From positions 32,001 to 96,000 of IMG/VR virus record IMGVR_UViG_3300021399_000008: 64,000 nucleotides of DNA. One strand, 5' to 3'. Below the pieces are notes generated by a model, which was not told the DNA's origin, did no database searches, and was given only the letters and a program-made list of their open reading frames with translations. Of the stretch, positions 6,203 to 62,000 are shown piece by piece. Source of the stretch: a virus (taxonomy: Duplodnaviria; Caudoviricetes). Within the stretch, counting starts at the first letter, position 1. Each line of letters begins with the position of its first letter. Made by a program: the position numbers and the translations under genes.

Positions 6203-6701
6203 GGTAGTAGGAAAGTTCTCGAAGGTTTCACTCGAGCAGTTTATCGATGACTACAGGAACGTCGTATCTCCTGAAGAGAGCGAAGAGACAATCGCGAAGA
6301 TCTATGAACAGATCACTCTGCCTGAAAGAAGTACTCAGGGTTCAGCTGGCTACGACTTCAAGCTTCCTATTCCAGCCTTCTTCGACAGTAATATCCCGTT
6401 TACGATTCCAACTGGGATCAGGGCTGAGATTAAACCTGGGTGGTTCCTGATGCTTGTACCTCGTTCAAGTCTCGGGTTTAAATACGGTATGAGACTGAGG
6501 AACACAGCTGGGATTATCGACAGTGACTATGCTTTCGCTGATAACGAAGGCCACATTATGGCTAAGGTCGTGTTCGATGAGTACTGCTGCCTGAATGACG
6601 GCGACAAATTCATGCAGGGAATTTTCGTTCCATATGGTATCACAGACGGTGATGCCACTAAAGGGAAAAGAACAGGAGGTTTCGGTTCAACTGGAACCTG
6701 A
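6195..6701 (+). CDS. dut: dUTPase (trimeric)
   Basis: SAGYD, PRSSLG, GIIDSDY and RTGGFGSTG motifs. Confidence 0.95.
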   Translation: MAEVVGKFSKVSLEQFIDDYRNVVSPEESEETIAKIYEQITLPERSTQGSAGYDFKLPIPAFFDSNIPFTIPTGIRAEIKPGWFLMLVPRSSLGFKYGMRLRNTAGIIDSDYAFADNEGHIMAKVVFDEYCCLNDGDKFMQGIFVPYGITDGDATKGKRTGGFGSTGT

Positions 6702-6821
6702 GAACAGGAGATTAACTAGTAAATGGTAACTGTATTGACAGTAAATATGCAGCACGCACTGATCATTGGATTGATCGGATTTGTTGCTTACCTTCTTGCA
6801 GCCGACTATGAGGAATAAGAT

Positions 6822-7127
6822 ATGCCGACACAGCTAAGATGGGTCCAAAGACCACCAAACCATGAGATACTCGTATAGAGTACAGATGAACAGGGTGACA
6901 ACGTCCTCGCTGATATTACCTACAGAAACGAAAGTAAGACAGAGTGGGCGTTCACAACGGCTATTAAACAGATTCCTACGATCTCAGCCGACAGTGACGT
7001 AACAGACACGAAGCGGTGTATTATCTACGATCTGATTAAGTTTTTCCAGGAGAGAAAGCATCAGAACGAAGAGATACTTGAGCAGTTGGAATCTATTAAG
7101 CCGAAAGTAAAGGAAGACCTGGAGTAA
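6822..7127 (+). CDS. Hypothetical protein with an in-frame TAG at 6876 (missed by the standard-code ORF track)
   Basis: GAGG RBS; MPTQLRW...HEILV*STDEQG...KEDLE then TAA; 101 codons, followed by a terminator. Confidence 0.7.
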
Positions 7128-7145
7128 TCCGGGTCTTTTCTATAT

Positions 7146-7219
7146 GCCGAAGTGGCGCAACAGGCAGACGCAGCGGACTTAAAATCCGTAAGTTGTGGGT
7201 TCGAGTCCCATCTTCGGTA
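7146..7219 (+). tRNA. tRNA-Leu(UAA) with a short variable loop
   Basis: Acceptor GCCGAAG/CTTCGGT, A73; D arm TGGCGCAACAGGCAGACGC; anticodon TAA at 7180-7182; GTTCGAGTC T loop. Confidence 0.9.
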
Positions 7220-7312
7220 CTCGTCAGGAGGAGTCTTGGCGATAAGTTTAGAGGAAGGGTACAGGGCATACACCCTTCCTCTGTCTTTATCTTGTTTTGT
7301 CCAGCCGCTCTC

Positions 7313-7388
7313 GCGGGAGTGGCGAAATTGGCATACGCGGCGTACTCTAAATACGCTAACTTTGAGGGTTCGAGTCCCTTCTCCCGTA
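7313..7388 (+). tRNA. Amber-decoding tRNA (anticodon CUA) with a tRNA-Leu-type body
   Basis: Acceptor GCGGGAG/CTCCCGT, A73; Leu-type D arm TGGCGAAATTGGCATACGC; anticodon stem GCGTA/TACGC, loop CT-CTA-AA (7347-7349); T arm GAGGG-TTCGAGT-CCCTT. Confidence 0.92.
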
Positions 7389-7705
7389 CTTACATAAAGT
7401 ATTGGGAAATTCGAAGCGATTTCAGCTTCCAGAATTACGTAAAGAACTTATCAGCTTTCGATCTGGAAGCGAGATTCGATAAGTTTTTCTCCAGTAGTTC
7501 TGGACAAACTGGAATAAAGGAGAGAAGGAACATAGAACAGGAAAGAAATTTACAAAGGAATCTCTGCAGGTTATAATAAAGAGACTTACGAGAAACAGAG
7601 AGGTGGTTAACATGGTTATAAAGCTTATTTTGTAGACTGAACACACCTTAACGTATGACTGGTCTTATCGATCCCGCTGCAGAGATTCAGAAAGGGAAAT
7701 AAGAA

Positions 7706-8554
7706 GTGAGTAATACGTTAAAGGAGAGAAACTATGAAAAGGAAACGGTGAATATGGAGAATAATGAAAAGCTTATTATCGATGACTACGGAAACGGAAG
7801 ACTGGACTACATCGACAAGAGTAAGCTGAGATCAGGAATGCGGCTTCTCACATATCGTGAGGGCTGGATGGTTGTGATGCGGGATGTGAATCCCTTAATC
7901 TTCAGAGACAGAGATGTATTCGTTCTGGAAGACTGTGTGAGACCTTTCAGCGAGTGGAACGATGACCTGACGTTTAAGAACAGAGATATGCCCGGGTACG
8001 ATGTCGTAGCTGCGTGCTCGACAACAAACCTTGGCGAAGTAGTAAAAGGAAACCGTGATATCTACAAACAGGATGACGAGGAATGTTTCTGGAAGTCCGA
8101 CCTTGTGAAAGAGGCAGCTGTTGATCCGCAGAAAGCATACATGTTTGACCTGAAAGGATCACTAAGAACAGGTGACCTCGTGGAATTAAGGAACGGTAGA
8201 CGCTATGTTGTAATGTATAAGGTTTACGTCGGTGAAGTAGATGACGATCTGCCTTTCCATGTGCCGAACTACAGCGACCTGCTGATTGAACTGGAAGATC
8301 CAGACAATACTGTAAATCTTTGCCAGTATCAGACCGGACTCTGGCATACATATGACCACGATCTCGATGTTATGGCTATCGTAAAGCTGTCTTCTACAGA
8401 CTTCTCCGTGATGGGTAAGCTGAAGGATAAGAAATACGTAGATAAACTCTTCGAGGATACATGGTGGCGCAGAACACCGGAGATTGAACAGGCATTTAAA
8501 GACTGGATAGACAGGCAGGATTCCGATATTACGGATGATTACCTGCCGTTCTGA
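7706..8554 (+). CDS. Hypothetical protein with two internally repeated domains
   Basis: LRSGMRLLTYREG...YDVVA versus LRTGDLVELRNG...LDVMA. Confidence 0.65.
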   Translation: MSNTLKERNYEKETVNMENNEKLIIDDYGNGRLDYIDKSKLRSGMRLLTYREGWMVVMRDVNPLIFRDRDVFVLEDCVRPFSEWNDDLTFKNRDMPGYDVVAACSTTNLGEVVKGNRDIYKQDDEECFWKSDLVKEAAVDPQKAYMFDLKGSLRTGDLVELRNGRRYVVMYKVYVGEVDDDLPFHVPNYSDLLIELEDPDNTVNLCQYQTGLWHTYDHDLDVMAIVKLSSTDFSVMGKLKDKKYVDKLFEDTWWRRTPEIEQAFKDWIDRQDSDITDDYLPF

Positions 8555-8571
8555 AACTAAATAATTAAGAG

Positions 8572-8603
8572 GAGTAGCCGTAGGAAACTGCGGCTACTTT
8601 TTA
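8572..8603 (+). terminator. Rho-independent terminator
   Basis: AGTAGCCGTAG-GAAA-CTGCGGCTACT followed by a T run. Confidence 0.75.
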
Positions 8604-8628
8604 ATTTATCTCTACCAGAGGTGTAACT

Positions 8629-8823
8629 ATGAAGTACAACGTAACGAGTATCGAGAACTACCTCGACAGACTGAACGAGGAAACAGAAGAAGATCAGCCT
8701 TTCTACAAAGACTAGTCTGCTGAGGAAGTAGAAAGGGAGGAGGTGGAAGATTGTTCGAAACCGTTCTTGAGTACTTCGACGACAGCGAGTGCCGGGTCTA
8801 CACGAACGAAAGGAAAACGATAA
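8629..8823 (+). CDS. Small acidic protein with an in-frame TAG at 8713
   Basis: GAGGTG RBS; FYKD*SAEEVERE; read-through would overlap the next ORF by 73 nt. Confidence 0.45.
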
Positions 8824-9035
8824 ACAGAGTCCTCGGGTTCGCTGAAGAATACCCGGATAAAGTCAGACTGCTGAATGAACCTAAAGATAACGAAGGTTAC
8901 TTAAACGCCTATATCCCCAGAGACTGGGTAGTAATACGGCCTAAAACTACGAGAGAACTTACTGAAGAACAGAAACAGGCTCTCCGTGACAGGCTTAACA
9001 GTTACAGAAAGAAGGCAGAAACAGAAGATGAGTAA
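8751..9035 (+). CDS. Hypothetical phage protein
   Basis: TTG start with GGAGG RBS; C-terminal RELTEEQKQALRDRL motif common in Firmicute phage proteins. Confidence 0.65.
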   Translation: MFETVLEYFDDSECRVYTNERKTINRVLGFAEEYPDKVRLLNEPKDNEGYLNAYIPRDWVVIRPKTTRELTEEQKQALRDRLNSYRKKAETEDE

Positions 9036-9672
9036 CTCGCTGGAAGTACAACTTATCCGATATACTCCTGATCCTGACCATATCTGTGGTCTCGCAGCAG
9101 CCGAGTGTTATAGCTCGAACAATCCTTATAAAGCCCTGAAAGTAGCGATGGAAGGCGGTCACGAATCGGTAGCTGAACACGCAACCTTTACCTTTCAGAT
9201 TAAAGGTCTTTCGAGAACTGCTCTTGCCCAGCTTACGAGACACAGGCTGGCCTCATTCTCTGTCCAGAGTCAGCGGTATGTAAACATCACAGACAACGAT
9301 GTCGTAATGCCTGACAGTATTCCTGAGAAATACAGGGCTGACTGGGAAGAGATCGTAAAGAAGGCTGGAATTCTCTACGTACATATGGTCGAGGATGGCG
9401 TTCCGAAAGAAGATGCCAGGTTTATCGTACCGCAGGGAGTTACTACGAAGCTTACAATGACTATGAATGCCCGTGAGCTTCGCCACTTCTTCTCTCTTCG
9501 CTGCTGTAACAGAGCCCAGTGGGAAATCAGGAAACTTGCCTGTAATATGCTGGACCTTGTGAAACCTGTAGCTCCGATACTGTTCGCTGATGCTGGCCCT
9601 GCGTGTGTCAGAGGCCAGTGCCACGAGAAGAGGCCGTGCGGAAATCCCTGGCCTAAGCTGAAGAAGGAGTGA
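9028..9672 (+). CDS. thyX: Flavin-dependent thymidylate synthase
   Basis: GHESVAEH, RHRLASFSVQSQRY, EDAR and AQWEIR motifs. Confidence 0.95.
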   Translation: MSNSLEVQLIRYTPDPDHICGLAAAECYSSNNPYKALKVAMEGGHESVAEHATFTFQIKGLSRTALAQLTRHRLASFSVQSQRYVNITDNDVVMPDSIPEKYRADWEEIVKKAGILYVHMVEDGVPKEDARFIVPQGVTTKLTMTMNARELRHFFSLRCCNRAQWEIRKLACNMLDLVKPVAPILFADAGPACVRGQCHEKRPCGNPWPKLKKE

Positions 9673-10442
9673 GTCCAATAAGCATAATGAGCACAATGGA
9701 CCGTGGAAATAAAAACAGAAAAGACGTTAATAATTTCAGAAAGCCTGTTCCGGTTCTTGAGCAGCACGAATCTACTGTCCTGATCGGATGTTCTGTTGGG
9801 GTCTGTCCGAACTGTGGGTATACGCTGACGAGAAAGAGTACAGATAAGTACGTCCGCTACTGTCCCGAATGTGGAACCTGTATATCCTGGAATAACACTG
9901 ACGAGAAAAAGGAGACTGGTACTATGAATTCCGTAAAGAATACTAAGATTGCTCCTCCGTGGGTAACCTATAGAAACATGATGGTTGCTCTGTTTGAACG
10001 CGATCCTGATGTGGCGATCAGCGACGTATACAAAGACAACGACAACTACGCTGTCGATCTCGAAATCACGAAACACAGGAAGTATGAAGCTCTGGTTAAG
10101 CTGCTGCCTGCAAAAGTGGAATTCGGGAACGTTTGTCTGAAACTGTATATTTACGACGAAGAGAATAGCGTTGAGCCGGATCAGGCTGCTCTGTACCGCG
10201 ATGCTTTTGAGAACAATCCGATCTTCGACTATGTTGAGGATCTGACTGACGTCACCGGTACCCACCACTATTTCGTGATGTTCGAGCCTCAGGTAATCCA
10301 GTTCTATAACGATAATCTGCAGGATCCGAACGGTAACTGGAGTGGTTTGGCTCAGGATCTGGCTAAGGAGATCTTCAGGAACGTACAGCTCGGTACTACC
10401 TTCTCTACTGCTCCTGTTAAAGTTGGTGGAACTGAGAAGTGA
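9669..10442 (+). CDS. Zn-ribbon-containing hypothetical protein (possible second start at about 9923)
   Basis: CPNC/CPEC pairs; internal GGAG RBS followed by ATG. Confidence 0.6.
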   Translation: MSPISIMSTMDRGNKNRKDVNNFRKPVPVLEQHESTVLIGCSVGVCPNCGYTLTRKSTDKYVRYCPECGTCISWNNTDEKKETGTMNSVKNTKIAPPWVTYRNMMVALFERDPDVAISDVYKDNDNYAVDLEITKHRKYEALVKLLPAKVEFGNVCLKLYIYDEENSVEPDQAALYRDAFENNPIFDYVEDLTDVTGTHHYFVMFEPQVIQFYNDNLQDPNGNWSGLAQDLAKEIFRNVQLGTTFSTAPVKVGGTEK

Positions 10443-11002
10443 AACACCTCGAAAGGATTACTCCGAAAAGTATCGGGGCTTCGATGGCTATATCTCTTGT
10501 GGTTTGTGCTCTTCTTAAGCTGGGTAATCCAATTGGTCCTGTAATCTTCGCTCTTGGTCTTATCTCAGTCTGTGTTCTGAACCTATACCTGTACACAGGG
10601 AAGATTGGATTCGTATTCGAGGACAATCTGGATGGCTCAGATCTTCTGAAGATTCTGGCTGTGAATCTGATATCGGGATATCTGATCGGCTGCTTTATTG
10701 GAACAGCAGATCCTTCTCTTATTCAGCCAGCCTTAACGAAAGCGCAGACGTGGACCTACAGCTTCCCGTATTTTCTCCAGTCAGTCTTTTGTGGAATTGT
10801 GATGTATCTGGCAGTAGCGATCTATAAGAAGAAGAGTATGCTCGGGATTCTCTTTGGAATTCCGCTGTTTATCTTCTGCGGTTTTCAGCATTGTATCGCG
10901 AACGTGATTACTCTCGGTGTAGCTGGAACATGGAACTGGGCAATCTGCTTGTGTATCTTCGGGAACACAGTCGGCTCAATCCTGATGTGGCTGATCAGTT
11001 AA
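10439..11002 (+). CDS. Formate/nitrite transporter (FocA/NirC family), short version
   Basis: Multi-TM protein; LYTG, NLISG, FIFCGFQHCIAN and GNTVG motifs. Confidence 0.8.
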   Translation: MKHLERITPKSIGASMAISLVVCALLKLGNPIGPVIFALGLISVCVLNLYLYTGKIGFVFEDNLDGSDLLKILAVNLISGYLIGCFIGTADPSLIQPALTKAQTWTYSFPYFLQSVFCGIVMYLAVAIYKKKSMLGILFGIPLFIFCGFQHCIANVITLGVAGTWNWAICLCIFGNTVGSILMWLIS

Positions 11003-11012
11003 GGAGATTAAA

Positions 11013-11318
11013 ATGGCTAAAGAGGAAAAGTACCTGCATATCTGTGAGGTCTGCGGGAAAGAAGAGTATCTGACTGAGAAGGAAGCATATGAGAAAGGCT
11101 GGGATTACCCACCATATATTGGAACGTATGGAGTTCTCTCGCCCAGAACCTGTCCGTGTTGCACAATCGAAGATACGGCCTGGTTTGATTATATGAAGCA
11201 CCATTCCTTTGCTCAGCTGTCAGAGAAGCACAAGGAAACAGTCAGAAGAATCCTGGGAGAACCGGATAATCTGATCTTCCTGAATGATAAGAAAGGAAAG
11301 AAGAAGAATGGCACGTAA
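11013..11318 (+). CDS. Zn-finger hypothetical protein
   Basis: HICEVCG...PRTCPCC. Confidence 0.65.
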   Translation: MAKEEKYLHICEVCGKEEYLTEKEAYEKGWDYPPYIGTYGVLSPRTCPCCTIEDTAWFDYMKHHSFAQLSEKHKETVRRILGEPDNLIFLNDKKGKKKNGT

Positions 11319-12360
11319 ACTAGCCAGTATAGAAAAAGTCTGGAAGATAGAACCTATCGAAGGAGCCGACAATATCGAGCTGGCCCACGTACTTGGATGG
11401 CAGTGTGTTGTAAACAAAGGCCAGTTCAAACCGATGGATCTCGGTGTCTACTTTGAGATTGATTCTTTCCTTCCGATTCGGCCTGAGTTTGAGTTCCTGA
11501 GATCTTCGAGCTACAGAAACTCTGATATCTTAGGTGAAGGATTTAAGCTGAAGACAATGCGGTTTAAAGGTCAGCTCTCGCAAGGATTACTTCTTCCTGT
11601 CAGCCTCTTCCCTCAGCTCACCGGATATAATGTCGGTAGAGGCGTTGCCGAAGAACTCGGAGTTAAGAAGTGGGAGATCGAAGAGAGAGCTACGACTGGC
11701 GGTAACGTAATCGGAGAACTTCCGCACGATGTACCTCATACAGATGAGACCAGGGTGCAGCAGATACCTGAACTGATCGAAGAGTTCAGAGGACTTGAGT
11801 ACTATATCTCAACGAAGATGGATGGCTCGTCGCATTCAGTCTCGATAGACGAAGACGGACTGCATGTGACTGGCCACAACTATGAATACAAAGACGACGG
11901 ATCTTCGAGCTTCTACGAGTTCATTAAGTCGAATGGATACCTGAAGAGGATTCAGGAGTACAAGGAGAGGCACAATCTCACAGTAGAGACTCTTACAATT
12001 CAGGGTGAGTTCTGTGCTCCGGGTATTCAGGGCAATCCTGTAAAGCTTACGAAGCCTGAGTGGTTCGTGTTTACTGTCAGAATCAACGGGAAACGTGTGT
12101 CTCTGTATGAGATGCAGAAAGTCTGCGAAGAAGCAGGTCTTTCTACTGTCCCAATTGAGGAAGTAGGAATGGATCTTCCGTCGAAATATCCGACAGTTGA
12201 AGCGGTATTGGAACGAGCTGAAGGTAAATATTCTACAGGAGCCCGTAAGGAAGGTATCGTAATCAGACCTACAGAACCTGTGTTCTCCAGGACAATCAGT
12301 ACAAGTCTTTCTATGAAGGCTGTGAGTAACACATACCTTCTGAAAAAGAAAGGCGATTAA
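11308..12360 (+). CDS. RNA ligase (Rnl2-like, DRB0094 family)
   Basis: RKLASI...PIEGADNIE; nucleotidyltransferase motifs KMDGSS, QGEFCAPGIQGN, EGIVIR and KAVSNTYL. Confidence 0.88.
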   Translation: MARKLASIEKVWKIEPIEGADNIELAHVLGWQCVVNKGQFKPMDLGVYFEIDSFLPIRPEFEFLRSSSYRNSDILGEGFKLKTMRFKGQLSQGLLLPVSLFPQLTGYNVGRGVAEELGVKKWEIEERATTGGNVIGELPHDVPHTDETRVQQIPELIEEFRGLEYYISTKMDGSSHSVSIDEDGLHVTGHNYEYKDDGSSSFYEFIKSNGYLKRIQEYKERHNLTVETLTIQGEFCAPGIQGNPVKLTKPEWFVFTVRINGKRVSLYEMQKVCEEAGLSTVPIEEVGMDLPSKYPTVEAVLERAEGKYSTGARKEGIVIRPTEPVFSRTISTSLSMKAVSNTYLLKKKGD

Positions 12361-12369
12361 AGTCAACAG

Positions 12370-12400
12370 AGTACCCGAAGGAGTAACTTCGGGTACTTTT
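12370..12400 (+). terminator. Rho-independent terminator
   Basis: AGTACCCGAAG...CTTCGGGTACT followed by TTT. Confidence 0.7.
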
Positions 12401-12406
12401 ACTTAT

Positions 12407-12480
12407 GCTATCGTAACTCAGCAGGTTAGAGTGTCGGCCTTATAAGCCGCTGGTCGTGGGTTCGAATCCCACCGATAGTA
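12407..12480 (+). tRNA. tRNA-Ile(UAU)
   Basis: Acceptor GCTATCG/CGATAGT; anticodon loop CT-TAT-AA; T arm GTGGG-TTCGAAT-CCCAC. Confidence 0.85.
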
Positions 12481-12528
12481 CGAAAAAATAAAAACAGATA
12501 GTACGAAAAAATAAAAACGGAGGAAAAT

Positions 12529-12891
12529 ATGGGTATTGTAAACAGATACAGAATGAAGCCTGGTGTAACTCTGGATGACATTAAGCACGAGCTGCAGGAG
12601 AAGCACCTTCCGATTTCGACAAATACATCTTATATCGATGGTGGGCTGGATTTCTCGACTTTCAGTATGCTTGTTGATGAGATCTCTGTAAACATAGGTT
12701 TCCCTAAAGATATTTCCAAGTGGGACGACTATGAGCACATTGTTGTAATCGATGAAGATTTCCTGCAGCCTTATGGCCCGTTCTACAACATCGACGAAGA
12801 TCCGTTTATATATGCTCTGAACGTTGTTGGCCACTACAACAAGTTCATGGATTCGTTATCGTTTCTGGAAGAGGTGAGTTCGAATGGGTAA
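12529..12891 (+). CDS. Hypothetical protein
   Basis: GGAGG RBS; DEDFLQPYGPFY motif. Confidence 0.65.
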   Translation: MGIVNRYRMKPGVTLDDIKHELQEKHLPISTNTSYIDGGLDFSTFSMLVDEISVNIGFPKDISKWDDYEHIVVIDEDFLQPYGPFYNIDEDPFIYALNVVGHYNKFMDSLSFLEEVSSNG

Positions 12892-13516
12892 GTTAATTAC
12901 TTTCGAAGGTATAGACTGCTGCGGTAAAACAACGCAGATAAATCTTCTGCTAGACGACCTGACTGCGAAGTACGGTAAGAGCGCAATGTCTACAAGAGAA
13001 CCTGGAGGCTGTATTGTGGCTGAACATATCAGGTCTATTCTGCTTGATCCTGCTACTCCTCCGATCTCTGGGACAACAGAAGCTCTTCTCTTCGCAGCCA
13101 GCAGATCAGAACACTATAACCGTATTGTGAAGTACGGTCTGGAACACTGGGACTTCGTAATCTCAGACAGATTCTGTGATTCCTCTGTCGCTTATCAGGG
13201 TGGAGGAAGACAGATGGATAAGGAACGGATTATGCAGATTAATGACCTGTTCCTTGAAGGCCGGAGACCTGACAAGACTTTCTATATCAGGATTACACCT
13301 GAAGAAATGTACAGGAGAATGGCTGAAAGACATATGGAACAGCTTAAGGATAGGATAGAACGTGAAGATATCGCTTTCTTCCAGCGAGTAGTCAACACCT
13401 TCGACGAACTGGCTGAGTATAGTCCTGAGAGAATCGTTGTAATCGACGGAGCTCAGGATATCCAGACGATCCATTCTCAGATTTGCCAGAACCTTGAGGA
13501 ATCCGGACTCTTATAA
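12884..13516 (+). CDS. tmk: Thymidylate kinase
   Basis: ITFEGIDCCGKTTQ P-loop, TREPGG and DRF..SSVAYQG motifs. Confidence 0.95.
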   Translation: MGKLITFEGIDCCGKTTQINLLLDDLTAKYGKSAMSTREPGGCIVAEHIRSILLDPATPPISGTTEALLFAASRSEHYNRIVKYGLEHWDFVISDRFCDSSVAYQGGGRQMDKERIMQINDLFLEGRRPDKTFYIRITPEEMYRRMAERHMEQLKDRIEREDIAFFQRVVNTFDELAEYSPERIVVIDGAQDIQTIHSQICQNLEESGLL

Positions 13517-39598: not shown

Positions 39599-42500
39599 TC
39601 ATAAACAAAAACCAACAATAACATCACAATTATTTGTTAATGCGGTTCTGTTAGCGTACGCGGTAGCGGTCGACGTGTTCGGAACTGTTAACCCATAATT
39701 AGATTCTGCAGATTCTGCATTAATGCTGGTTCTCTACCAGAAGGATGGTACACTGCTCCCCGATGTGGTATATTTTATTCGAAGTACAACGTTACTTATT
39801 TGATCATATACTGCGCCGCTGTTTTCTATCTGATACCATGCGCTAGCAGATTTTCTAAGTCCTAATTCTCTGCTTGAAAAAAGCCATATATCTTCGTCTG
39901 AAGTAATATCGGTTCCTGTTGGATCTTTTGTTACTTTTTTAACAGTTTTTATATTGGATTGTATGATAGTTGGAAGTTTGCTTTTAAAACTTTTGATTAC
40001 GCTGCGAAGCTCAAGCTCTGAATATGGAACAGCTTCGTCAACACTGTGTGCCCTATGTGAAAAAACGGTTGTCCGAAAAGCCCATGTTGTTTTTGCAGTA
40101 GAAGCATCATTATCAGATAATATATCTTTGTCAACACCGATTAACATTGTTTGATATCGTTGTCCGTCGGCTTCTATTGTTTTTATGGATCCTATCGGGT
40201 ATTTATCTACGTTTCCAGAATTTATATTACTTATTATAGTATCCCAATCGTCTGAAATGTCTTCAAAATAGCCTAAAGGATAACTATCGAGCGGCGCAAT
40301 CATATACTTACCCCACGTAATATGGCTTCTATATAAATCTAACAACTCGGGACGTACGTAAATCGCTCCAAGTTTCTTTTCTATGAAAGTGCCGGAAATC
40401 GCGTTTACATCGTTTATTTCAGCAACAGTTGATGAATGGATTACTAAATGTTTTATAGGCTTGTTCCTCAGCTGAGCGTTGAGATTATCGGTGTTAAACT
40501 GAAGATTGTCTAATTGTGTAAACTCAACCGTTTTTAAGTTTGAGCACGAGTTAAGCCCATTGGGGCCAATATAAGTAAAAGGACCGGAGATTTTTGTTAA
40601 TTGTCCTTGACCAATCAACCCTGAATCAGCTATAGTGGAATTATTTATTGTTTCATATATTTCCAGTTTTCCCCGAATATATTTAGTCACATCGTTGCTT
40701 GCATCTGCGTATTGAGCTACACAAACTAGATTACCGACAATATTAATAGGCTCTGGTGACCATCCTGTGAACAAATAGTCATCGGTATTTCCAGTGCTGT
40801 TGTTTGTGGGTGTTGTTTCGGTATAATTCGCACTGCCGCCATACGGAACATTATTCACAGTCTGAAGCGTATTATTATCCCAGTTCTTAAACGTCACAGT
40901 AAACGTTCTGAGTTGACTCGTAAACACAGGATATAAGTCACGATCTTCAGTAACATTCTTCAATGCATCAGGATCCATTACTCCATCTACATACCGCGCC
41001 CAACCATTTGCAAATGTGAATGTATGGCTTGCGCTCTGCGGTTTGGTTGGTGTAGATCCAGTATAAGTGACAGCTGCTCCATTAGCGGAAGTTTTTGTCT
41101 GAAGCACGCTGGTTCCATCGTAATTATAGAAACGAACCGTGCAATTAATTGTGTTGTAATCTATCGTGATATCAGGATATTTATCTTTGATTTGCTTCGT
41201 AACTGCACCGCTTACAGTGTCGATATGGATCGTTCCATAAACCTGAGCTGTGTCTACGTTAAGCCCCTGTTCGTTGCGACCGTGTAAACTGTCAAGTTTT
41301 GCTTTTATCGCAAGCAGTTCAGTCTCATCTGCTACTGTCCAATCGAAACCAATTAAACGAAGATTACTGCCTTCAGTTAATCCGTTCACCAGAGTTTTTG
41401 TATCGATAATATTACCAATATTCTCCAGCGTAACGGTTGTCAGATTCTCTTCGGAAGCTAACACGAAGTCTGTAATATTCGGCTGATTAATAATCTCAAG
41501 GTTTGTGATCGTTCCAGGCAGATGCAGTGTTTTAATTATGCCGCCGTTAGGAAGCTTTACGCCTTTAATTGCAGTGCCATCGAAGTAAATATGTTCGATA
41601 TTCTTACAACCAGATAAATCAGGAGGGGTTGTAAGCTTATCGCCATAGTTCGAACAGTTACGTACGTCTAATGTCTTCAGCAGCGTGTTATTACCAAGCG
41701 TCAGGTTCTCCAGGTTCGGGTTATTATAGTTCGGATCTGCGTCTCCAAGCTTAAGACTCTGAAGTTTTGTAGCATAGGAGAAGTTCGCGTAACCTACCAG
41801 CAGCGGAGAAAGATCGCCTACACTCGCCAGCTGAGAAGACGAGTAGATATAAACTTCGGTATCGTTCATCCTGTCGAGAGGACATGGAATTGTAACCGAA
41901 GTATTTCTTGGAGTCTTTCTGGATACCTGCTCAACGTCCTGAGTACCAGAATCCTTCGAGCCGTACTTAATTGAAACATAGATATCAGCATACGGAGTTA
42001 CTGTTATATCCGCTTTGTTGTAGGCACGAAGAGTAATAATATCAGACAGCGCATTACCTGCGAGATATTTACTGTCAGTGAACTTAAGTCTGTTATAGAG
42101 CCACCACTTACGCTGTTCGGTTTTACTGCCAAGAGCCATCTCGAGATAGCTGCCGTCACATTCGTCGATCAACGGAGCGATGTATTTATAATAAGCGTCT
42201 TCGTTAAAGATCGTCTCAGGCCATTTGGATTGATGGTCTTCGAACATCTTTTCAATAGCCTCGTAGCTAAACGCATCGTTAGCTCTCAGGTCTTTGTACA
42301 TTCTCTTGATCTGAAGACCGAAAGCCTTTCGTACGTTTCTCCACTATACGCTTTCACGACCGTTGTAAACGTCCTTTTTGCCGTTATTATAAGTATCCTC
42401 GTCTTCGAGGTCGTAAGAGAAAGTCAGGTGACCTTCGTTGTTACATGTCTGTTACTTTGCTGACCTGTTCATACAGGCGGGAACGGTTCTTCTTTAAGTG

Positions 42501-50500: not shown

Positions 50501-51919
50501 AAGGAGTTTCGGTCCCTGTCTCTGAAAGTTCGCGATAGCCTGAATTGCGTCGTCAGTTAATAACCCTACCTCGTCGTAATAGTTAAAGTCCATTACGAAT
50601 GAGAACCAGTTCCGTACATCTGTATTGGAGATATAGGTAACTGTAGGATAGCTGAGGTTAGGAGCTGACGGTTCGTCATAGACACGGTAGGCCATATCGA
50701 CTTCATAGTTATAGTCGGGGTTCAGAGGATCTGTTCCAGGGTCCGAAAGATCAGGGTCTTCAGGAACGAGTTCGCCGTCGTCTTCGCTGACGAGATCATC
50801 GTCACCGCCAGAAGAACTGGAAGAACCTGAAGAGCTAGAAGAACCAGACGAGCCGGAGGAAGAACTTCCGCTCGAACCAGAACCTTCTACGTACAGAACC
50901 GTATCGTCGTAGACATACATCATAGACGCAGGATCCAGTTGAGAGAAGGTAAACGTGTGCTGACTCGTAATCTGACCAAGAGGAGCTTCAGTCGGTTTAA
51001 AGTACTTCGTAACGACAATACCCTGTGCGTTCGTATACTGGAACCTGATCTCAGTTTCTGGGGCTACTGAGCTGTTAATCCTGAACTTCAGTTCCTTATG
51101 GGTACATTCGTCGATTCCGCAGTATCCGTTCGTCTTATCGCCGTAAGCTCCATAGGCATACAGCTTTGTTCTAAGATTCTCTGTGTTCAGAGTGCGGGTA
51201 ATATTCTTTACATTATTTCCATAGTGGAGTTCGATTACACCTTTAGCCGTCGTAACGTCTGGAACAGTTCCGTCCTTCGGTTCAGAGAAAGGATTCATCG
51301 GGACAATATCTACCGTCTTCGAATCTCCTCTGAAGATAGGTTTCGCATCAAACAACTCACACATCTTAGAAATCAAAGAGAAGGCCCCGGTCTTCTCAGA
51401 GGCTACGAGTGAACGGTACTTAACAGTTACACCGTCGTCCTCATAGAACTTCGAGACAACACCTTTCGTCCAGCCAGTACCTTCGAGGATCACGTCCAGG
51501 AAAGTATCTGGGGTTCCGACGTTATTGCCTTCGTCGTCTGAGAATACAAGACCGAGGTTCTTATACTTCAGCTGCTGCGAAACATGTCCGCATATAGCTG
51601 TCACTGTTCTGGATTTGTTTGAGTGCGTAATCTTAGGTTCAGAGATTATGTACCATTCAGTCTCGTCTTCGTTAATCAGTCTGACTTTATAGTCAGCCTT
51701 CATAAACTGAAGACGAGGATTCTCTTCCTTACCGTTCTCTGTCTCGATAACTGTCGGGAGAGTAAATGACTATTCTCGCCAGCCGTTACGGGAAGTAGAC
51801 TCAGTAATACCAGAAGCCTGACCTGAGACATCGCTGTTTGAATCATAAAGGTTACAGATCTTATTGCCGGAGTAGTCGAATATATCGATGATACATAATC
51901 GTTTATAATTTATCGCCAT
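47573..51919 (-). CDS. Tail tip/Tal-like (prophage endopeptidase tail) protein with an in-frame TAG at 51770
   Basis: GAGG RBS; NGWRE*SFTLP; YGNNVKNITRT..TKLYAYG; WREFGSGNGF; downstream of Dit. Confidence 0.8.
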
Positions 51920-51930
51920 AAAATCGCCTC

Positions 51931-53028
51931 TTAATAGAATGTGGGTTTGTACACAAAATTTAATCTGGTTATGCTCATCTTTGTAACAGGACGGATCGAG
52001 AGTTCATTCATTCTGAAGATAACGGCCATACCTTTAAGATCAGCTGATAGGGAAGTGCCTACCGTGATCTTATTTGTATTTGTGTTAACTGCGGTAATCT
52101 TATATCTCGTTCCTCCTGACTGTGCGCAGATATACTGACCAATCATATCTTCTGAGAGTATCTGGTTATTTACAGATAAGTTATTAGAGTTTTTCGCGCC
52201 ATTTACGAAGACATTTCGGTAACAGGGAAATGCCGGGGAGAGCTGGATAAAGCCGAAATCGTGGTATAAAAACCCATAAGTTACTGTAGAACCGTTAGTA
52301 ACGAACGTCTTACCGTTAAGTCCGTCGCACACAATCCACTTTCCGACATTCGTAGTATTCGACTTCGTCCCGCCGATAAACTTCATCTGCTGGCCAGTAG
52401 TAAGGTTGTCTATAATAACTCCTGTTCCAAAGTCTCCTGCGATCTCAACAGCTACATCTGCCCTGGCTGAGCCTGGGTTAAAGAGCTGGAAGGTTTTCTC
52501 GGCAGTAACAGGAGAGGAGCTTGTAGCGAAAGAAGTAGGAAGGTTCCACGAACTTCCTGCCATCATGGCTGAGTTCAGATAGATATCCTTACTGTCAGGA
52601 TCTGTCGCTTCGATATACATTTTGTCACACCGTGCGAAAGGGTAGTAACAGCGGACTGTCATACTCTAGAGACCGTTCTGAGGATTAGGCAGCATCTGAA
52701 TAGTAGGAGGAGTAATCACTGTTGCCATATAGTAGTTCCACGGTCTGCGTGAGAAAATAAGTTTCGCTGTTTTACCCGGAGCAAATATCTGGTGGAGTCG
52801 GGCCATAAAGCCGTCCTTCACGTTCTGTCTTTCGAATACACAACGGAGATTGAAATCCTTCGGCTGAAAGGTAAAGCCGTAGTAGTAGCCGCCTTCGTGT
52901 CCGTCAAACTTCTGCTCGTGCATAATCGCCTGAGCAGGACCCCAGACATAGACGTCAGCGTTCTCAGGCACATATGTTAATCCAAGAGAGGCGATATCAA
53001 TCCCGTCAAAAGTAAAGCCGCCTTTCAT
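51931..53028 (-). CDS. Distal tail protein (Dit) with an in-frame TAG at 52666
   Basis: MKGGFTFDGI...LIFSRRPWNYY...NGL*SMTVRCYYPFA; follows the tape measure. Confidence 0.8.
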
Positions 53029-56000: not shown

Positions 56001-59000
56001 GCCGGATCAGACATAGCCTTCTGGAATCGTTCAGCGTTGTCAGCATCATCTGGATTGAAGATACCCTGACTGAGCTGAGACATAATATCAGACCCGAAGA
56101 TAGAGTTCATCGTATCTACGCCTCTGCCAAGCATAAAGTTTTCTCCGCTGATGCTGGACGCAGCTGCCGCAGCGAGATCGTCATTGTTCACATACTGAGA
56201 TCCCTTAGAGAGAGCTTCAAGAATAGCGGAAACCATAGAGTCGCTACCTGCTAAACTCTGCACTCCTTCCTATGTCATGCCTTTTTCCTGAAGGAGTCCC
56301 ATAGCATCGTTGTAAGTTCCTGTACTCTTGAATGCCTCAATAAGGTCGAACATCGAAGTAAGAGTTGTATCTCTGTTTGCTTGATTCGTGATATAGTCAT
56401 TAGCAACCTGATCTGCAAGCGAAACGGGAGTGTACGTGGAAACACCAGCTTCATCGTAGATCGCGTACCTTCTGCGATTCTGATCTAATACACCAGCTTC
56501 TCCCTCGGATCCGGCTTCAAGCCTTGGAGGCGGGATCATATCACCGTTATAGTCAACATTGTGCCTTACACCAAAACTATAGTCGCCAGTTCCAGCTAAA
56601 CTCGTAGCCATAAGACCTAGAGTGGGATCGTTAATCAATCCAGATGTAACCATCTCCTGGATCATCTCAGGAGTGATAATCAGTTTCCCATTGCTCGCAT
56701 ACTGGCTGGCAATCCTGTTATAAAGAGTAGGATCGGTTTCAAGATCGGCAAGGAACCGCTCACGCATTGTAGCGCCGCCGTAGTTGAGGAATGAATCATC
56801 TGCTGATTGATTAAGCAGGTTCAGAAGGTATCCAATTCCTTCGGCGTCCATCTTCCTGATTTGGTCTACATCGACATTAGATTTAGACGCAAGGAAGTCG
56901 GCTTCTGCTTTAGTTAACTCTTCGCCACTCTTACCTTCGGCTGAATGTGTGATGTCGCGAATCTTCTCGACATTAGCCATCTCGGTCATGTAATCGCCGA
57001 GAGCTGTAATAGCTTCAGCCGCAGAACCAGAGAGTCCTTTGAGCGTCTCGGAAACTTTATCTATAGACTCGTTGAATTCGTTAGCTCCTTTAACACCGTC
57101 GAGAATGAAAGCATTAGCGAGCTTCTTGACTTCATCTGTAGAAAGATTGAGACCTTTGCGTACCTTTTCGAGGATGGGTTCAAGTTCAGGGAAAGCTTTC
57201 TTTAAAGCTTCGAGCTGACCAGCCCCGCCTTCTTCAAGATTGAATGCGTTCAGACTAGACTGTCTGTTCTGTTTCCCGAACAAAGAGTTATCGACATTTC
57301 CTGTTATCATCTGGCTGAGCCAATTGTTCCCGAATATCTTAGAAAGCCAAACGTTGTAATCGTTGTTCCCGTACTGGTTCGTTCCAAGAACGGCTGAGTT
57401 AAAAGCTTTAACCAGTTCGTCGACAGTCACGCTCTTATCTCCGTTGCTGGCAGCAGCAAGGAGATTGGAGAACCCTGTATTCTCTTCCAGGAACTTAGTA
57501 GCTAACTCGTTGTTGCTGAAGTATTTTTGGAAGTACTCAACAATAGCGTCAGTTGTTTTGAGCATTCCGCTATTCATGACGCCGAACATACCTTGCGTCA
57601 TTTTTGTTGTCCTGTTGGTCTCATCCATTGCCTGTTCTCTTGATGTGAATACGTTATCAAGAAGTGATTTACCTTCTCCGAGCGTAATGTCGCCTTCGAG
57701 CTTGATAGTGTCTGGCTTGATTACGATATTACCGTTTTCCAAAGCAGTCACGAAAGAGAAATTCCCAGAGTAACCGCGAGCTTGTGCTTCGGCAATTATA
57801 TTCTGCAGATACTGGTTTCCTGTTGCGCCGGCAAATTGGCTGGCTTGATCAAAAGACATAGTCCCAGTCTTTGCGAAGTTAAGCGAAGTAAGAGTATCCC
57901 AGTTCATCAATGAACTCAGATCGGCAATAGTCATCGTATCTTTTTTAATAGCTTGCTTTATTGAAACTTTAAGACTTTCGGCTATTACCTTGCCTACGTT
58001 ACTATTAGCTCCAGAAGAAGCCTCGTCCGCGATTCCTGTGAATATCAGTTCAATAACATCAGCGCCGAGTTCTTTAATCTGAGCTTCTTTCATTCCAGTG
58101 ATTTCTTCGATAAGAGCAAGCCCGTCTGAATCAAGAGCAGAACCAGAACGCCCACGGTTACGAGTGACTATCGAGTTCATATCGGCGTACTTCTGAATAT
58201 TTCCAAAGACTTCACCCATAGCTGAGAGCTTAGCCTTTGTTGAACTGGAAGTTAGATTCGAAATCGACTCAACAACTTCTTGAATGTGCTGATTGTATTT
58301 GTCAACCGATGTTATACCTTCGGAAATAAAAGCTTGAGCTAAGGCTAACTGCTGTTCTTTTGTGACGGTTTCACCAGCAGAAAGAGTGTTGAGTACTTCG
58401 GTTAACCCTGAATATTTACTTTCAAGCTGCCCTATAAAATCAAGTATACCCTGATCTTCTGTAGTGCCAAGATAGAAACGTCCTGTATAAGTGCCGCTAA
58501 GCATCTCGCTTAACCAGTCCTGGCCAAGTAACTCGTCCATCATCCTGGAATATTGCTCATGGCTAAATGAGTTACGCCCTGTGGCTGCATCATTCAGTTG
58601 ACGTCTAAAATCGTCAAAGCTGAAGAAGGAACTGCCACTCTGCAGAGAATACCACATGTTGAGAAGCGTAGGATTTTGAGAGAGAATAGAAGGTAAATTA
58701 TCCACAACTTCTCCGTATTCGCTTGTTAACCCAGAATTGAAAGAATTGATGTCTGAATAATGTTTAGCTATATTATAGAATTCAAACAACGTGTCAGTAA
58801 AAAGAGGGCTTTCAGCGGACTTATTTAAAACAAGACCTTCTACGGTTTTGCTTGGGTCGTAATACACCTGCTGATTATTTTTATTTTTTATATCGTAAGC
58901 AGAGATCCCATTCGTTCTTGCGTAGTTTAAAGCAGCTTCCTGCGTTTCAAAACCCATCCCGCCAACGTTAAACGCATACGCTGAAGCATCGGCCTGTCCT

Positions 59001-62000
59001 TGCAGCATAGCAGCACGAGTAGCCGGATCCGCATACCTTAATTGAAGAGCGAAAGTACGCGGCGTATTATACATCTAGTCTGGCAAGTTATCGTAAGATA
59101 CGCCTTCTCTAAAATGCCCGTTCTCGTCCCAGATAGCATTTCTTGTGAGGTTTGTCAGTGCGCTGGTTACTACGTCTTTATCTCCAGGAGTGTATGTCGC
59201 AACAACGCCTACAGCTTCCTGTATAAGTTCATCGACAAAGTTTTTCTCAAGAGTAGCCCAGTTATCCTGAAGCTTACTTCTGTGCGTACCCGACACAAAA
59301 TCAGTTCCAAATGAATCCAATAAGTAACCAAACAGGTTACCTATAGCATCATCGGAATTTGCTCCACGGAAAGACTTAAGCCCGTTGTCTAAATCGTCGA
59401 TAAACATTTCAGCCATCGATTTGTCGCCTGACACATACGGGGACATGTTCAGTCCAGAAGGCGCTAATTGCAACACTTCATTTAAAGAAGTCTTAACTTG
59501 GGATATATAAGATTCTCTATCTGGAGAGCCTTCGAGGAAGTTTTTGTTTTTAAAGTTAAGCAGAATGTTGCCTAACTTTTTCGCGTCTTCCAAATTGTAC
59601 CCAACAGAACCTTCAGGAATTAAACCTAATGAAGAGTTAAGTATTCCGAATTGAGGGCCATAGTACGATTCGTTTGCTGCATTCTTAAATACTTCTACGC
59701 TCGAGTATGTGCGGGACTTCTTTAAATCATTTAGTTTGTGACTATACTCCATCCCGAAGTTACTCATAGCCCACTCGTCGGCAAGAGCTAATGCTGTGTC
59801 ACTTGTAGCCTTATCGAAATCACCTGCTGATTTCTTTGCTTCGGAAACAATCTTTCGCCATCTCTCAAGAGTGTTTGTTGTAGTGTCGAGATTCTTGTTG
59901 AGTGACGGGAGAGCCGTAGTTAAATCTTTGATATTTTGTTCAAGCTCTTTAGTTTCCTTGGCTGATAACTTGGAACTACCAGAGAAGTCCTTGTATTTAT
60001 TGGCTAAAACATCAGATTCTTTCAGGTACTTTCGAATGGTATCAGATTGCTGATTCCTATTATTTACGTAGGTGTTCAGCTCAGAGATCTTAGTACTAGA
60101 CTCCGCAGCTCTAGATGAAGATGAGCCAGACGGGATAGCGCTTCCAAGTAATCCAGCTCCAGCAACAACAGCGCCACCAGCAAGAAGGCCAAGCAAAGTA
60201 CTAAGAGGACTAGATACGCTATGAACTACAGCCATAGCAACGCCGAGAGCAACGACAGCAGTGGTTATTGCTCCGATTGTTCCAATAGCTTTACCACCAA
60301 GAGTAAGTACGTTTTTCAAACCGTTCAGAATAGTTGTTCCTATTTCAATTACGCCAGTTAATACACCATCGTCTTCAAGAGCCAACACAAAACTGTCAAA
60401 CGTAGATCTGAGTTCCTTCAGCCTTGCGTTAATTGACTCGATCATAATCTCATACTTGCTCTGCGTGATACCAGAACTGTTCCCAGATAAGCCGAGGTAT
60501 TTAGCAAATGTCTCTCCGTTATCTTCCGACAATCCTTCCATAAGCGTATTAAACATGTTAGCGCTTCTGGTTTGTGCAAGATTAGAAGTAACAGCTGCCT
60601 TCTGGACATCAGTCATCGAATTCCACTTCTGAGCTACTTCAAGAAGGATTTCGCTGGCAGATTTAAACTCGTCCATACCCGCGCCTTTACGCATCTCAAT
60701 ACCAGCAATCTTCAGAGCTTTTTCTACGTTATTCAGCGTAGTCGTTTCTCCGTTAATCTCCTTAGAGTAACCACTCATGGTAACATTTCTCATTCGGGAG
60801 AAGATAGTATTAAGAGCTGTACCGACCTGCTGACCACTGAGCTGTGTCATAGAGGTCATGACAGTAATCATTGAGTTGAGCTCGTTGTAAGACACGCCAG
60901 CAACTTTAGCTGAAGCCGCACACTTCTGCATAGCTTTCGAGATTTCCTCTGCTGTTGTAGCAGCGGAGTCGCCGAGCGCTACGAGTGCGTCCATAGCCTC
61001 TTCAGCGCTTCCGACAAGATTATTCCTTAAGGCAGTTGTAATAATCTTAGTTGCTGTTGTAGTCTTAATCTGAGCAACAGTTGCGAATTTAACTATAGCA
61101 TCAGTCTGAGAATCGACTTCAGCGTCAGAAAGACCTTGACGATAAAGCGCCGAAGTAACATCAGCCACCTCTGATGTAGAAGCTCTAAGGTTAATTGCTT
61201 TATTAACCACACCAGTACGAATACTCTGCATCTCTGCATTTGTTTTCATGGTGATTGCCTGGATCTCAGTCATCGAAGCGTTGTATTCCATCACAAAGCG
61301 TTTCGCTTCGTTAATAGCTTGTTGAAATAAACGTCTTCCGAACTGCTGAGTTAAACGGCTAACTCCAGCAATAACAGTATTAAGACCAGCGGAAAGTTCA
61401 GCATGTGTACCAGTAAGCTTATCAATAGCTGCTTCATTTTCTTCTATTGCTTTTGTGTATTTCTTGATATCGATCTGAGCTTGCTCGTATCGCTCATCTG
61501 TCGCTGAAATACCTTGGAGTCCGATAACCTTCTCATTAAGACCTGCGTTTATCTGCTCCAGTTGTTTAGCCTGGGCTTCGTATCGATCAAGCGATTGTCC
61601 GTATAAACCAGTACGGCCAGCTGTTTTGCCGAATCCTAATTTGCGAAGATCGGCATATTTCTCAAGCTCAGAATCTACTTGCCTGTCGTGCTCAGTGCTG
61701 AGTAATTTCGCATATTGCTCCGAATCTAGTTTATCTATAGCGGATTTCTTCGTAGTATACTCGTCTTTCGAAATGCCGCCTGCTTTGTATAACTTCTCAA
61801 GATCTTCGTACTGTTTGTTAACGCTGTCTTTGAAGTTCTTAATAGCCTGTCCGTACTTATGTAACGGGACGTCTGTGCCGTTCTGTTTCGCAAATAGATC
61901 AGAGGTTGTTTCATCGAGAGATTCTGCATACTCTTTATAGAACTGCTCCCTCTTCTCTTTCATTTCCTTTTCTTTTTCGACGGCTTTCAGGTAAGCAGCT

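Follow-up and report, generated by a model that had tools for sequence, protein, structure and literature searches.

The DNA analyzed here is a stretch of 64,000 nucleotides (the window), which corresponds to bases 32001–96000 of a 116,328-bp virus record. The parent genome is rated as complete and has a terminal direct repeat of ~128 bp. The phage is SPbeta-like and has been found in bovine, sheep and other animal-gut metagenomes (11 studies). Across all 116,328 bp of the genome, ARAGORN calls no more than three tRNAs, with the anticodons UAA (Leu), CUA and UAU (Ile) (Table 1). The tRNA(CUA), a candidate amber decoder, also matches the Rfam tRNA model over its full length at 7313–7388, with a score of 50.9 bits (E 5.6e-9; gathering score 29).

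The acceptor stem of the tRNA(CUA), as read from the sequence, consists of 7 bp, including G1·U72 and C2-G71, and is followed by U8 and G9. The D-stem consists of three pairs (G10-C25, C11-G24 and G12-C23), with A13 and A22 mismatched, and the D-loop contains the residues A14 A15 U16 U17 G18 G19 C20 A20a U21. The length and register of this loop (AAUUGGCAU) are those of E. coli-type tRNA-Leu. The anticodon arm has a 5-bp stem and the loop C U C U A A A; the variable loop consists of 7 nt, the last of which is a U, and forms no hairpin; and the T-arm reads GAGGG/UUCGAGU/CCCUU. The discriminator base, A73, is the A at 7388, which adjoins the 7-bp acceptor stem, and the gene does not encode a CCA. 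The cloverleaf and the universal tRNA residues are all intact according to ARAGORN and Rfam, so that the complete cloverleaf with anticodon CTA reported in a preliminary description of this DNA is borne out by both programs and by the residue-by-residue reading. The same description pointed to the lack of the Gln-type features U1 and G73, and the tRNA indeed carries G1 and A73. The minimum-free-energy fold of the bare sequence differs from the cloverleaf (z -1.4), as is usual for tRNA genes. A 127-aa ORF listed on the plus strand overlaps the tRNA spacer and the tRNA(CUA) and is almost certainly spurious.

ARAGORN labels the 7313–7389 tRNA as "Pyl", which is due to the CTA anticodon alone. In a tRNA-Pyl, the anticodon stem has 6 bp and the variable loop 3 nt, and the D-loop is very small and lacks G18G19. 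Apart from the anticodon, these features are absent here, as the anticodon stem has 5 bp, the variable loop has 7 nt and the D-loop is of the standard type with G18G19. The probability that this gene encodes a pyrrolysine tRNA is negligible.

The upstream tRNA-Leu(UAA) also lacks the long variable arm usual in bacterial tRNA-Leu, a feature of both tRNAs on which the preliminary description is silent. The preliminary description gave the order of the two tRNAs correctly and put the distance between them at about 95 nt; the measured gap is 92 nt. The D-arm pattern TGGCG.AA..GGCA.ACGC, G1 and A73, which it regarded as common to both tRNAs, are confirmed. The two tRNAs are 77% identical and differ by four compensatory double changes (at 3:70, 5:68, 30:40 and 50:64) and by one further change from G-C to G·U, with no broken pairs. 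By sequence comparison, the tRNA-Leu(UAA) is a paralogue of the tRNA(CUA).

The hairpin in the spacer (~7249–7283) has a predicted folding energy of -31.3 kcal/mol (z -2.2) and, together with the U-rich tract (7249–7299), resembles an intrinsic terminator. Two other strains have several changes in the 5′ arm of this hairpin with no matching 3′-arm changes among those listed, suggesting that it is probably not conserved. A promoter and terminator scan upstream of the tRNAs identified nothing specific, and no promoter-like site is found directly upstream of the CUA gene. There is no Rfam match to a theta or HDV-like ribozyme beside the tRNA at E<=1 in 6500–13000.

Table 1. Features of the tRNA locus, in-frame TAG codons, and related tRNAs on other contigs (positions refer to the window unless a contig or genome is named).
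Feature	Position	Strand	Remarks
tRNA-Leu, anticodon UAA, type I	7146..7220	+	75 nt; ARAGORN; Rfam 60.8 bits
Listed 127-aa ORF	7193-7576	+
Spacer between UAA and CUA tRNAs	7221..7312	+	92 nt; 12-bp hairpin, then U-rich tract
tRNA, anticodon CUA (amber decoder)	7313..7389	+	77 nt; ARAGORN call
tRNA-Ile, anticodon TAT (UAU)	12407-12481		ARAGORN
In-frame TAG, 900-aa late protein, codon 856	39734..39736	-	frame open for 44 more codons, to TGA
In-frame TAG, 1448-aa tail protein (Tal-like), codon 50	51770..51772	-	Pfam YOMG_N match, residues 37-108, spans TAG
In-frame TAG, Dit (distal tail protein, 396 aa), codon 152	52666..52668	-	phrog_202 match, residues 31-227, spans TAG
Giant 4802-aa frame	53096-64000 and beyond (genome 85096-99504)	-	contains tape-measure domain
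In-frame TAG, giant 4802-aa ORF, codon 3745	56270..56272	-	no restart signals downstream
In-frame TAG, giant 4802-aa ORF, codon 2810	59075..59077	-	no restart signals downstream; single ORFs in relatives
Class II tRNA(CUA) contigs, L161-L165 and L167	3300045988_180464, 3300028833_005988, 3300014807_000164, 3300010163_000088, 3300029573_000382, 3300029705_000100		IMG/VR
Short Leu tRNAs	L005 301-377; L006 204-278; L007 201-274; also L133, L140, L141, L145, L148, L152		annotated tRNA-Leu
Class II tRNA-Leu(UAA) of a standard-code relative	L172 1355-1442 (contig G002:C9)		88 nt

TAG codons in the late genes and upkeep of the tRNA gene

The essential late genes contain ~25–30 in-frame TAGs. Genes end in TAA or TGA, and none of the 52 plus-strand genes of the window ends in TAG in a simple gene call. 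In the minus-strand late block, readthrough of TAG joins ORFs. Matches to protein families extend across in-frame TAGs in the Dit and Tal-like proteins (Table 1) and in the portal protein, where the match covers residues 53–523 and spans the TAG at codon 139. The large terminase (TerL) contains TAGs at codons 20 and 106; its family match begins at residue 16, and the Walker A motif is located between the two TAGs, upstream of the first standard-code start codon. The giant 4802-aa frame, which has a PD-(D/E)XK nuclease match in addition to the tape-measure domain, contains six TAGs, none of which is followed by a ribosome-binding site or a start codon, and its relatives are single proteins of 5892–6710 aa with the same domain. 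Thus, based on the family matches across TAGs, the giant ORF without restarts and its single-ORF relatives, we conclude that TAG is a sense codon in this phage. The phage therefore shows the hallmarks of phage recoding: its own stop-matching tRNA, in-frame TAG in essential genes, and other stops at the ends of genes.

Domain searches of the complete genome identified neither class Ia/Ib synthetase domains of the Leu/Ile/Val/Met and Glu/Gln types (PF00133, PF13603, PF00749) nor an RF-1 domain (PF00472). As the genome contains no other such tRNA either, the tRNA(CUA) is the sole candidate for decoding TAG, and, without a phage synthetase, a host enzyme must charge it. The first TAG often occurs early in the late genes (genome 71599–112857), at codon 20 of TerL, codon 33 of the portal protein and codon 50 of the 1448-aa tail protein. 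The same is seen at codon 20 of a 999-aa protein and at codon 20 of a 303-aa protein adjoining TerL (phrog_3314 match). Such early first TAGs would fit a gate on late-gene translation, and the recoding of TAG may have a regulatory role.

An alternative is that the CUA gene is decaying or silent, and that TAG is read by a host suppressor or by low-level readthrough, or is a real stop that gives truncated products. Contigs from RNA libraries (metatranscriptomes) of two studies, at 6969–7152 and 6800–7152, both end at 7152, short of the CUA gene; in these studies the flanking genes are covered and nothing lies over 7208–7598. The lack of a promoter-like site directly upstream and the non-cloverleaf fold of the bare sequence could also be read in favor of a silent copy. 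Breaks of such contigs are expected at tRNAs, since tRNA-like words are common to many organisms and can interrupt the assembly. This end point, which falls shortly past the 5′ terminus of the UAA tRNA, may reflect either RNase P processing or an assembly break at tRNA-like repeats. Against a silent or decaying copy, the cloverleaf and universal residues are intact and the changes relative to the paralogue are compensatory. Moreover, in contigs of two divergent strains that span 6800–7800, 0 of the 47 listed substitutions (53 in total) and 0 of the 12 listed indels (15 in total) fall in either tRNA, despite a 92-nt spacer that is saturated with substitutions and indels. The compensatory changes, together with the lack of listed strain variants beside the saturated spacer, indicate that the tRNA(CUA) is under selection, and we infer that it is expressed. 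As for truncation, TAGs precede the Walker A motif of TerL and interrupt conserved domains of the portal, Dit and Tal proteins, so that truncated products would be non-functional. A silent gene or genuine stops at TAG are thus quite improbable.

Leucine-like character of the tRNA(CUA)

A 24-nt degenerate motif, which comprises the 5′ strand of the acceptor stem and the D-arm, was found in 23 IMG/VR stretches. Nineteen tRNAs begin with this motif, and 18 of these have a Leu anticodon, including both E. coli-type class II forms and short forms of 75–77 nt. A looser Leu-type D-arm pattern gave 33 matches, 30 of them Leu, in a set of 616 phage and Clostridia-MAG tRNAs, and matched 0 of 117 other CUA tRNAs. 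A generic search with a CUA-loop and T-arm pattern yielded 117 unrelated suppressors, which are at most 71% identical to the tRNA(CUA).

Scoring against isotype models had been proposed as a check in the preliminary description. We ran it with home-made nhmmer profiles, one per isotype, built from the 616-tRNA set with the anticodon masked. The Leu profile is the best for the tRNA(CUA), with 42.0 bits, compared to 20.4 bits for the next one (Tyr), 19.5 for Gly, 18.9 for Met and 14.7 for Gln; the UAA tRNA scores 44.8 bits with the Leu profile. In three hold-out rounds, the Leu profile was right in 30/30 cases with 0 false positives, and all isotypes together were assigned with 64% accuracy. The best BLAST matches of the tRNA(CUA) are annotated tRNA-Leu genes, the top one being the 77-nt tRNA-Leu(UAG) of Vibrio phages Pylo, Thalassa and River4 (80.5%). 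Nearest-neighbour identity to the 42 tRNAs of candidate-host MAGs favors Leu by only a narrow margin (0.78 vs 0.74), and the assignment made here is based on the profiles instead.

The identity elements of bacterial tRNA-Leu, as established in E. coli and Aquifex, are A73, U8:A14, A15:U48, G18G19, A20a and contacts of the D-loop with the T-loop, and G73 blocks LeuRS (PMC9976931). The anticodon and the long variable arm are dispensable for E. coli LeuRS, as tested with truncated E. coli tRNA-Leu (PMC9976931). The tRNA(CUA) has the A73 required of a LeuRS substrate, and its sequence contains all of the core and elbow elements (U8:A14, A15:U48, G18G19, A20a and U54 U55 C56 A58). It also has the 3-bp D-stem with a mismatch at 13:22 and the C2-G71 pair, which blocks SerRS. 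The long variable arm that defines class II is missing, and, because of its 7-nt variable loop without a hairpin, we classify the tRNA as Leu-like rather than as a canonical class II tRNA-Leu. These comparisons show it to be Leu-like in sequence and to belong to a group of short-armed phage tRNAs. The tRNA-Leu scaffold claimed in the preliminary description thus holds for the D-arm, A73 and the isotype profiles, which are all of Leu type, with the qualification that the tRNA is of type I and has no long variable arm.

Residues aligned with TAG

The closest relatives found form a sister lineage (L014/L156) with 71–86% protein identity over the head module (~75%), which likewise contains in-frame TAG; its contigs end short of the tRNA region. 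TAG–residue pairs were counted in the best reading frame per region. Sites that precede a true start were left out, as was a "plus-strand 383-aa ORF" with a TAG opposite Tyr, an artefact that is the antisense of a real minus-strand gene. The resulting 19 pairs come from this one close sister lineage. TAGs of the present phage are aligned with L at eight sites and with M, A and S at one each; at two further sites, TAG occurs in both lineages or is aligned with a gap, respectively. Conversely, TAGs of the sister lineage are aligned with L at three sites of this phage, M at two, and V, Y and N at one each. Overall, Leu accounts for 11 of the 19 pairs and Met for three, with V, A, S, Y and N at one each and Gln at none. 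The binomial probability of 11 Leu in 19 at the background frequency is 1.3e-7. The Leu codons opposite TAG in the relative are CTT, CTC, CTG and TTA, and none is TTG, the one-step neighbour of TAG; the pairing of TAG with Leu thus reflects the amino acid rather than mutational proximity. BLOSUM62 log-likelihoods also place Leu at the top, followed by Met (-3.2 nats), Ile (-7.6), Tyr (-20.7) and Gln (-25.5).

The TerL column at TAG-106 is L96/I23 among 119 standard-code homologues of ~50% identity, and the portal column at TAG-139 is Y83/F12/L8/I7 in 119 distant homologues. At TAG-20 of TerL the distant homologues have E99/K10/Q4, and at TAG-33 of the portal protein they have D/E/S and also Q. 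These last two are N-terminal sites in variable acidic columns and represent the main data discordant with a reading of TAG as leucine. These sites may be tolerated substitutions, since GAG and TAY are one step from TAG. The TAG sites of the giant ORF fall in stretches of ~20% identity to its 5892–6710-aa relatives and carry no information on the residue. A metagenome scan with the 458-aa head protein, using low-complexity peptide patterns, recovered one near-identical fragment. By alignment to relatives, then, the TAG positions are shown to correspond to Leu, and the agreement between tRNA and proteins that the preliminary description had asserted is upheld by the pair counts for Leu and Gln and by the TerL-106 column.

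Several other amino acids have to be weighed against leucine. If the tRNA were charged with glutamine, the phage would use genetic code 15, as do the crAss-like, Lak and phAss-1 phages. All published recoded-TAG phages in the literature searched read TAG as Gln, a GlnRS-type gene is present in the candidate host families, and TerL-20 and portal-33 are located at columns (E/K/Q and D/E/S/Q) that admit Gln. However, a code 15 tRNA has U1-A72 and G73 where this one has G1 and A73, and the Gln profile scores far below that of Leu. No Gln occurs among the 19 pairs with the sister lineage, the log-likelihood of Gln falls 25.5 nats short of that of Leu, and the TerL-106 column is purely L/I. As neither TAG aligned with Gln nor a tRNA with U1-A72 and G73 was found, we consider a glutamine code highly improbable.

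The tRNA(CUA) might also insert Met, Ile, Val or Tyr, or be charged ambiguously by several synthetases. Tyr is found at portal-139 in 83/119 distant homologues, and U35, A36 and A73 of the tRNA(CUA) are common to the tRNA-Tyr amber suppressors. Bacterial TyrRS, however, uses a long variable arm, which is absent here, and Tyr is far worse than Leu in the log-likelihoods. Met has 3/19 pairs and, judged by the proteins alone, trails Leu by only 3.2 nats. Neither the Tyr nor the Met profile approaches the 42.0 bits of Leu. In addition, MetRS, IleRS and ValRS rely on their anticodons (PMC9976931, review), none of which is matched by CUA. Insertion of one of these residues, or mixed charging, is therefore unlikely.

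Charging, related phages and known codes

Leucine remains the preferred reading of TAG. Since all known LeuRS elements occur in the tRNA(CUA) and LeuRS is blind to the anticodon, the host LeuRS is the enzyme most likely to load it. The LeuRS of Streptomyces coelicolor charges a natural type I tRNA-Leu, whereas that of E. coli does not (PMC6614811), so that it is the host enzyme that decides whether an armless tRNA-Leu is accepted. Charging of the tRNA(CUA) by the host LeuRS would consequently be less assured than the preliminary description implied. Its central claim, that this tRNA decodes TAG as leucine, is supported by the isotype profiles, the protein pairs and the status of the tRNA as sole decoder, and we regard it as likely to be correct.

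We propose that the tRNA(CUA) belongs to a phage-borne lineage of short-armed (type I) tRNA-Leu. Most likely, a neighbouring gene, for instance the adjacent tRNA-Leu(UAA), was duplicated and the copy then acquired the anticodon CUA. Once loaded with leucine by the host LeuRS, this tRNA would compete with the host release factor 1 for the ~25–30 TAGs of the terminase, portal, head, tail and tape-measure genes and read them as leucine. Two MAGs, one of a rumen Lachnospiraceae and one of an Acutalibacteraceae, include contigs with related terminases, which tentatively suggests a host among the Clostridia. A host without GlnRS, which would force the Leu route, was considered and rejected, as a GlnRS-type C-terminal domain is encoded in both MAGs. 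In E. coli, U35 of amber suppressors can draw GlnRS or LysRS; given this effect and the GlnRS-type genes in MAGs of the candidate host families, some mischarging of the tRNA(CUA) is possible.

When IMG/VR was searched for tRNAs with a CUA anticodon loop after a Leu-type D-arm, six contigs were identified with a long-armed (class II) Leu-type tRNA(CUA) of 84–87 nt with A73 (Table 1). When these contigs are compared with one another, TAG is opposite Leu at 31/46 unique well-aligned sites, some of them in a DnaE-like polymerase. Judging from these alignments, they look like a second, independent group of phages with TAG=Leu, and would link a Leu-type tRNA(CUA) with TAG=Leu in an unrelated phage group.

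Suppressor tRNAs (Sup-CTA) are known from TAG-recoded gut phages (crAss-like, Lak, Agate/Jade/Sapphire and phAss-1), in which TAG is Gln (10.1101/2021.08.26.457843, Borges et al. preprint; PMC9523058; PMC10607447). The present phage resembles these code 15 phages in its phage-borne tRNA(CUA), the concentration of TAGs in structural and late genes, the TAA/TGA gene ends, the lack of its own synthetase and a host that presumably uses the standard code. In contrast to them, the predicted amino acid is Leu, G1, A73 and a Leu-type D-arm take the place of Gln features in the tRNA, and TAG use is sparse, with 1–2 TAGs per gene, rather than dense.

The supP/Su+6 leucine amber suppressors of E. coli, cited in PMC9976931 as used by Normanly, Ollick and Abelson 1992 (its reference 52), similarly combine a tRNA-Leu body with CUA and are still charged, as the anticodon is not recognized by LeuRS. 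These suppressors are class II mutants of chromosomal genes obtained in the laboratory, whereas the tRNA described here is natural, phage-encoded and short-armed, and essential genes depend on it. The lack of a long variable arm is shared with mitochondrial tRNA-Leu and with the type I tRNA-Leu(CAA) of S. coelicolor, which occurs alongside class II tRNA-Leu and just one LeuRS and whose charging needed a suitable LSD domain of LeuRS (PMC6614811). The S. coelicolor tRNA has a 5-nt variable loop and a sense anticodon, compared to 7 nt and CUA here. UAG is read as Leu in uncultured phyllopharyngean ciliates (PMC11687900). As in those ciliates, a tRNA(CUA) would be responsible for UAG=Leu in this phage. 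The same assignment, again by way of a tRNA(CUA), is found in NCBI tables 16 and 22 (green-algal mitochondria). In all of these cases a whole cellular or organellar code is changed, whereas here the decoder would be brought by a virus into a host whose code is presumably standard.

We found no published report of TAG=Leu in phages; in the literature searched, TAG is always Gln in recoded phages. The novelty lies in finding these traits together, in a suppressor that is natural, phage-borne, short-armed and of Leu type and that serves a viral TAG=Leu code. We lean towards the view that TAG=Leu is a second, unrecognized variant of the phage code, which would have arisen at least twice, with a type I tRNA(CUA) here and a class II tRNA(CUA) in the unrelated IMG/VR group. 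Table 15 (TAG=Gln) is the default annotation for recoded phages, for example in prodigal-gv, Pharokka-gv and geNomad. If a TAG=Leu variant exists, translating every TAG-recoded phage with this table puts the wrong residue at such sites, and the LeuRS of gut Clostridia accepts an armless tRNA-Leu. A Leu-reading lineage would mean that the residue at TAG cannot be taken for granted in recoded phages and has to be deduced lineage by lineage, on the basis of the tRNA and of alignments. A natural, compact amber suppressor that relies on an anticodon-blind synthetase would also represent the evolutionary route predicted to be the easiest, and could be useful for genetic-code engineering.

Both cultured phages and IMG/VR contain repeated instances of short tRNAs (74–77 nt) that have a Leu anticodon, a Leu-type D-arm and A73 but lack a variable-arm hairpin (Table 1). 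Cultured examples annotated as tRNA-Leu are those of Vibrio phages Pylo, Thalassa and River4 (UAG, 77 nt), Bacillus phage BCP78 (UAG, 75 nt) and Myxococcus phage Mx1 (UAA, 74 nt). They share with the tRNA(CUA) the Leu-type acceptor stem and D-arm, A73 and the lack of a variable-arm hairpin; unlike it, they have retained Leu anticodons, and recoding is not known in the phages that carry them. No study on the charging of short phage tRNA-Leu genes was found in the literature searched, and the present case draws attention to these widespread genes.

In-frame TAGs also occur in the TerL and portal region of a more distant lineage of ~50% identity (L159/L160; ENA NODE_188, 107,054 bp; Logan SRR873598). 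These are opposite Y, G, K, N, D and S of the present phage, in variable polar columns such as that of the Walker A sequence SRG*GKT, and no tRNA(CUA) was found within the 21 kb examined. TAG may have a different meaning in that lineage. A standard-code relative, a 136-kb contig with a 47% TerL relative, carries tRNA-Ile(UAU), tRNA-Pro and a class II tRNA-Leu(UAA), whose acceptor 5′ strand, GCCGAAG, is the same as in the short UAA tRNA of this phage. This sequence match hints that, within this phage family, a tRNA-Leu may have lost its variable arm and given rise to the short form.
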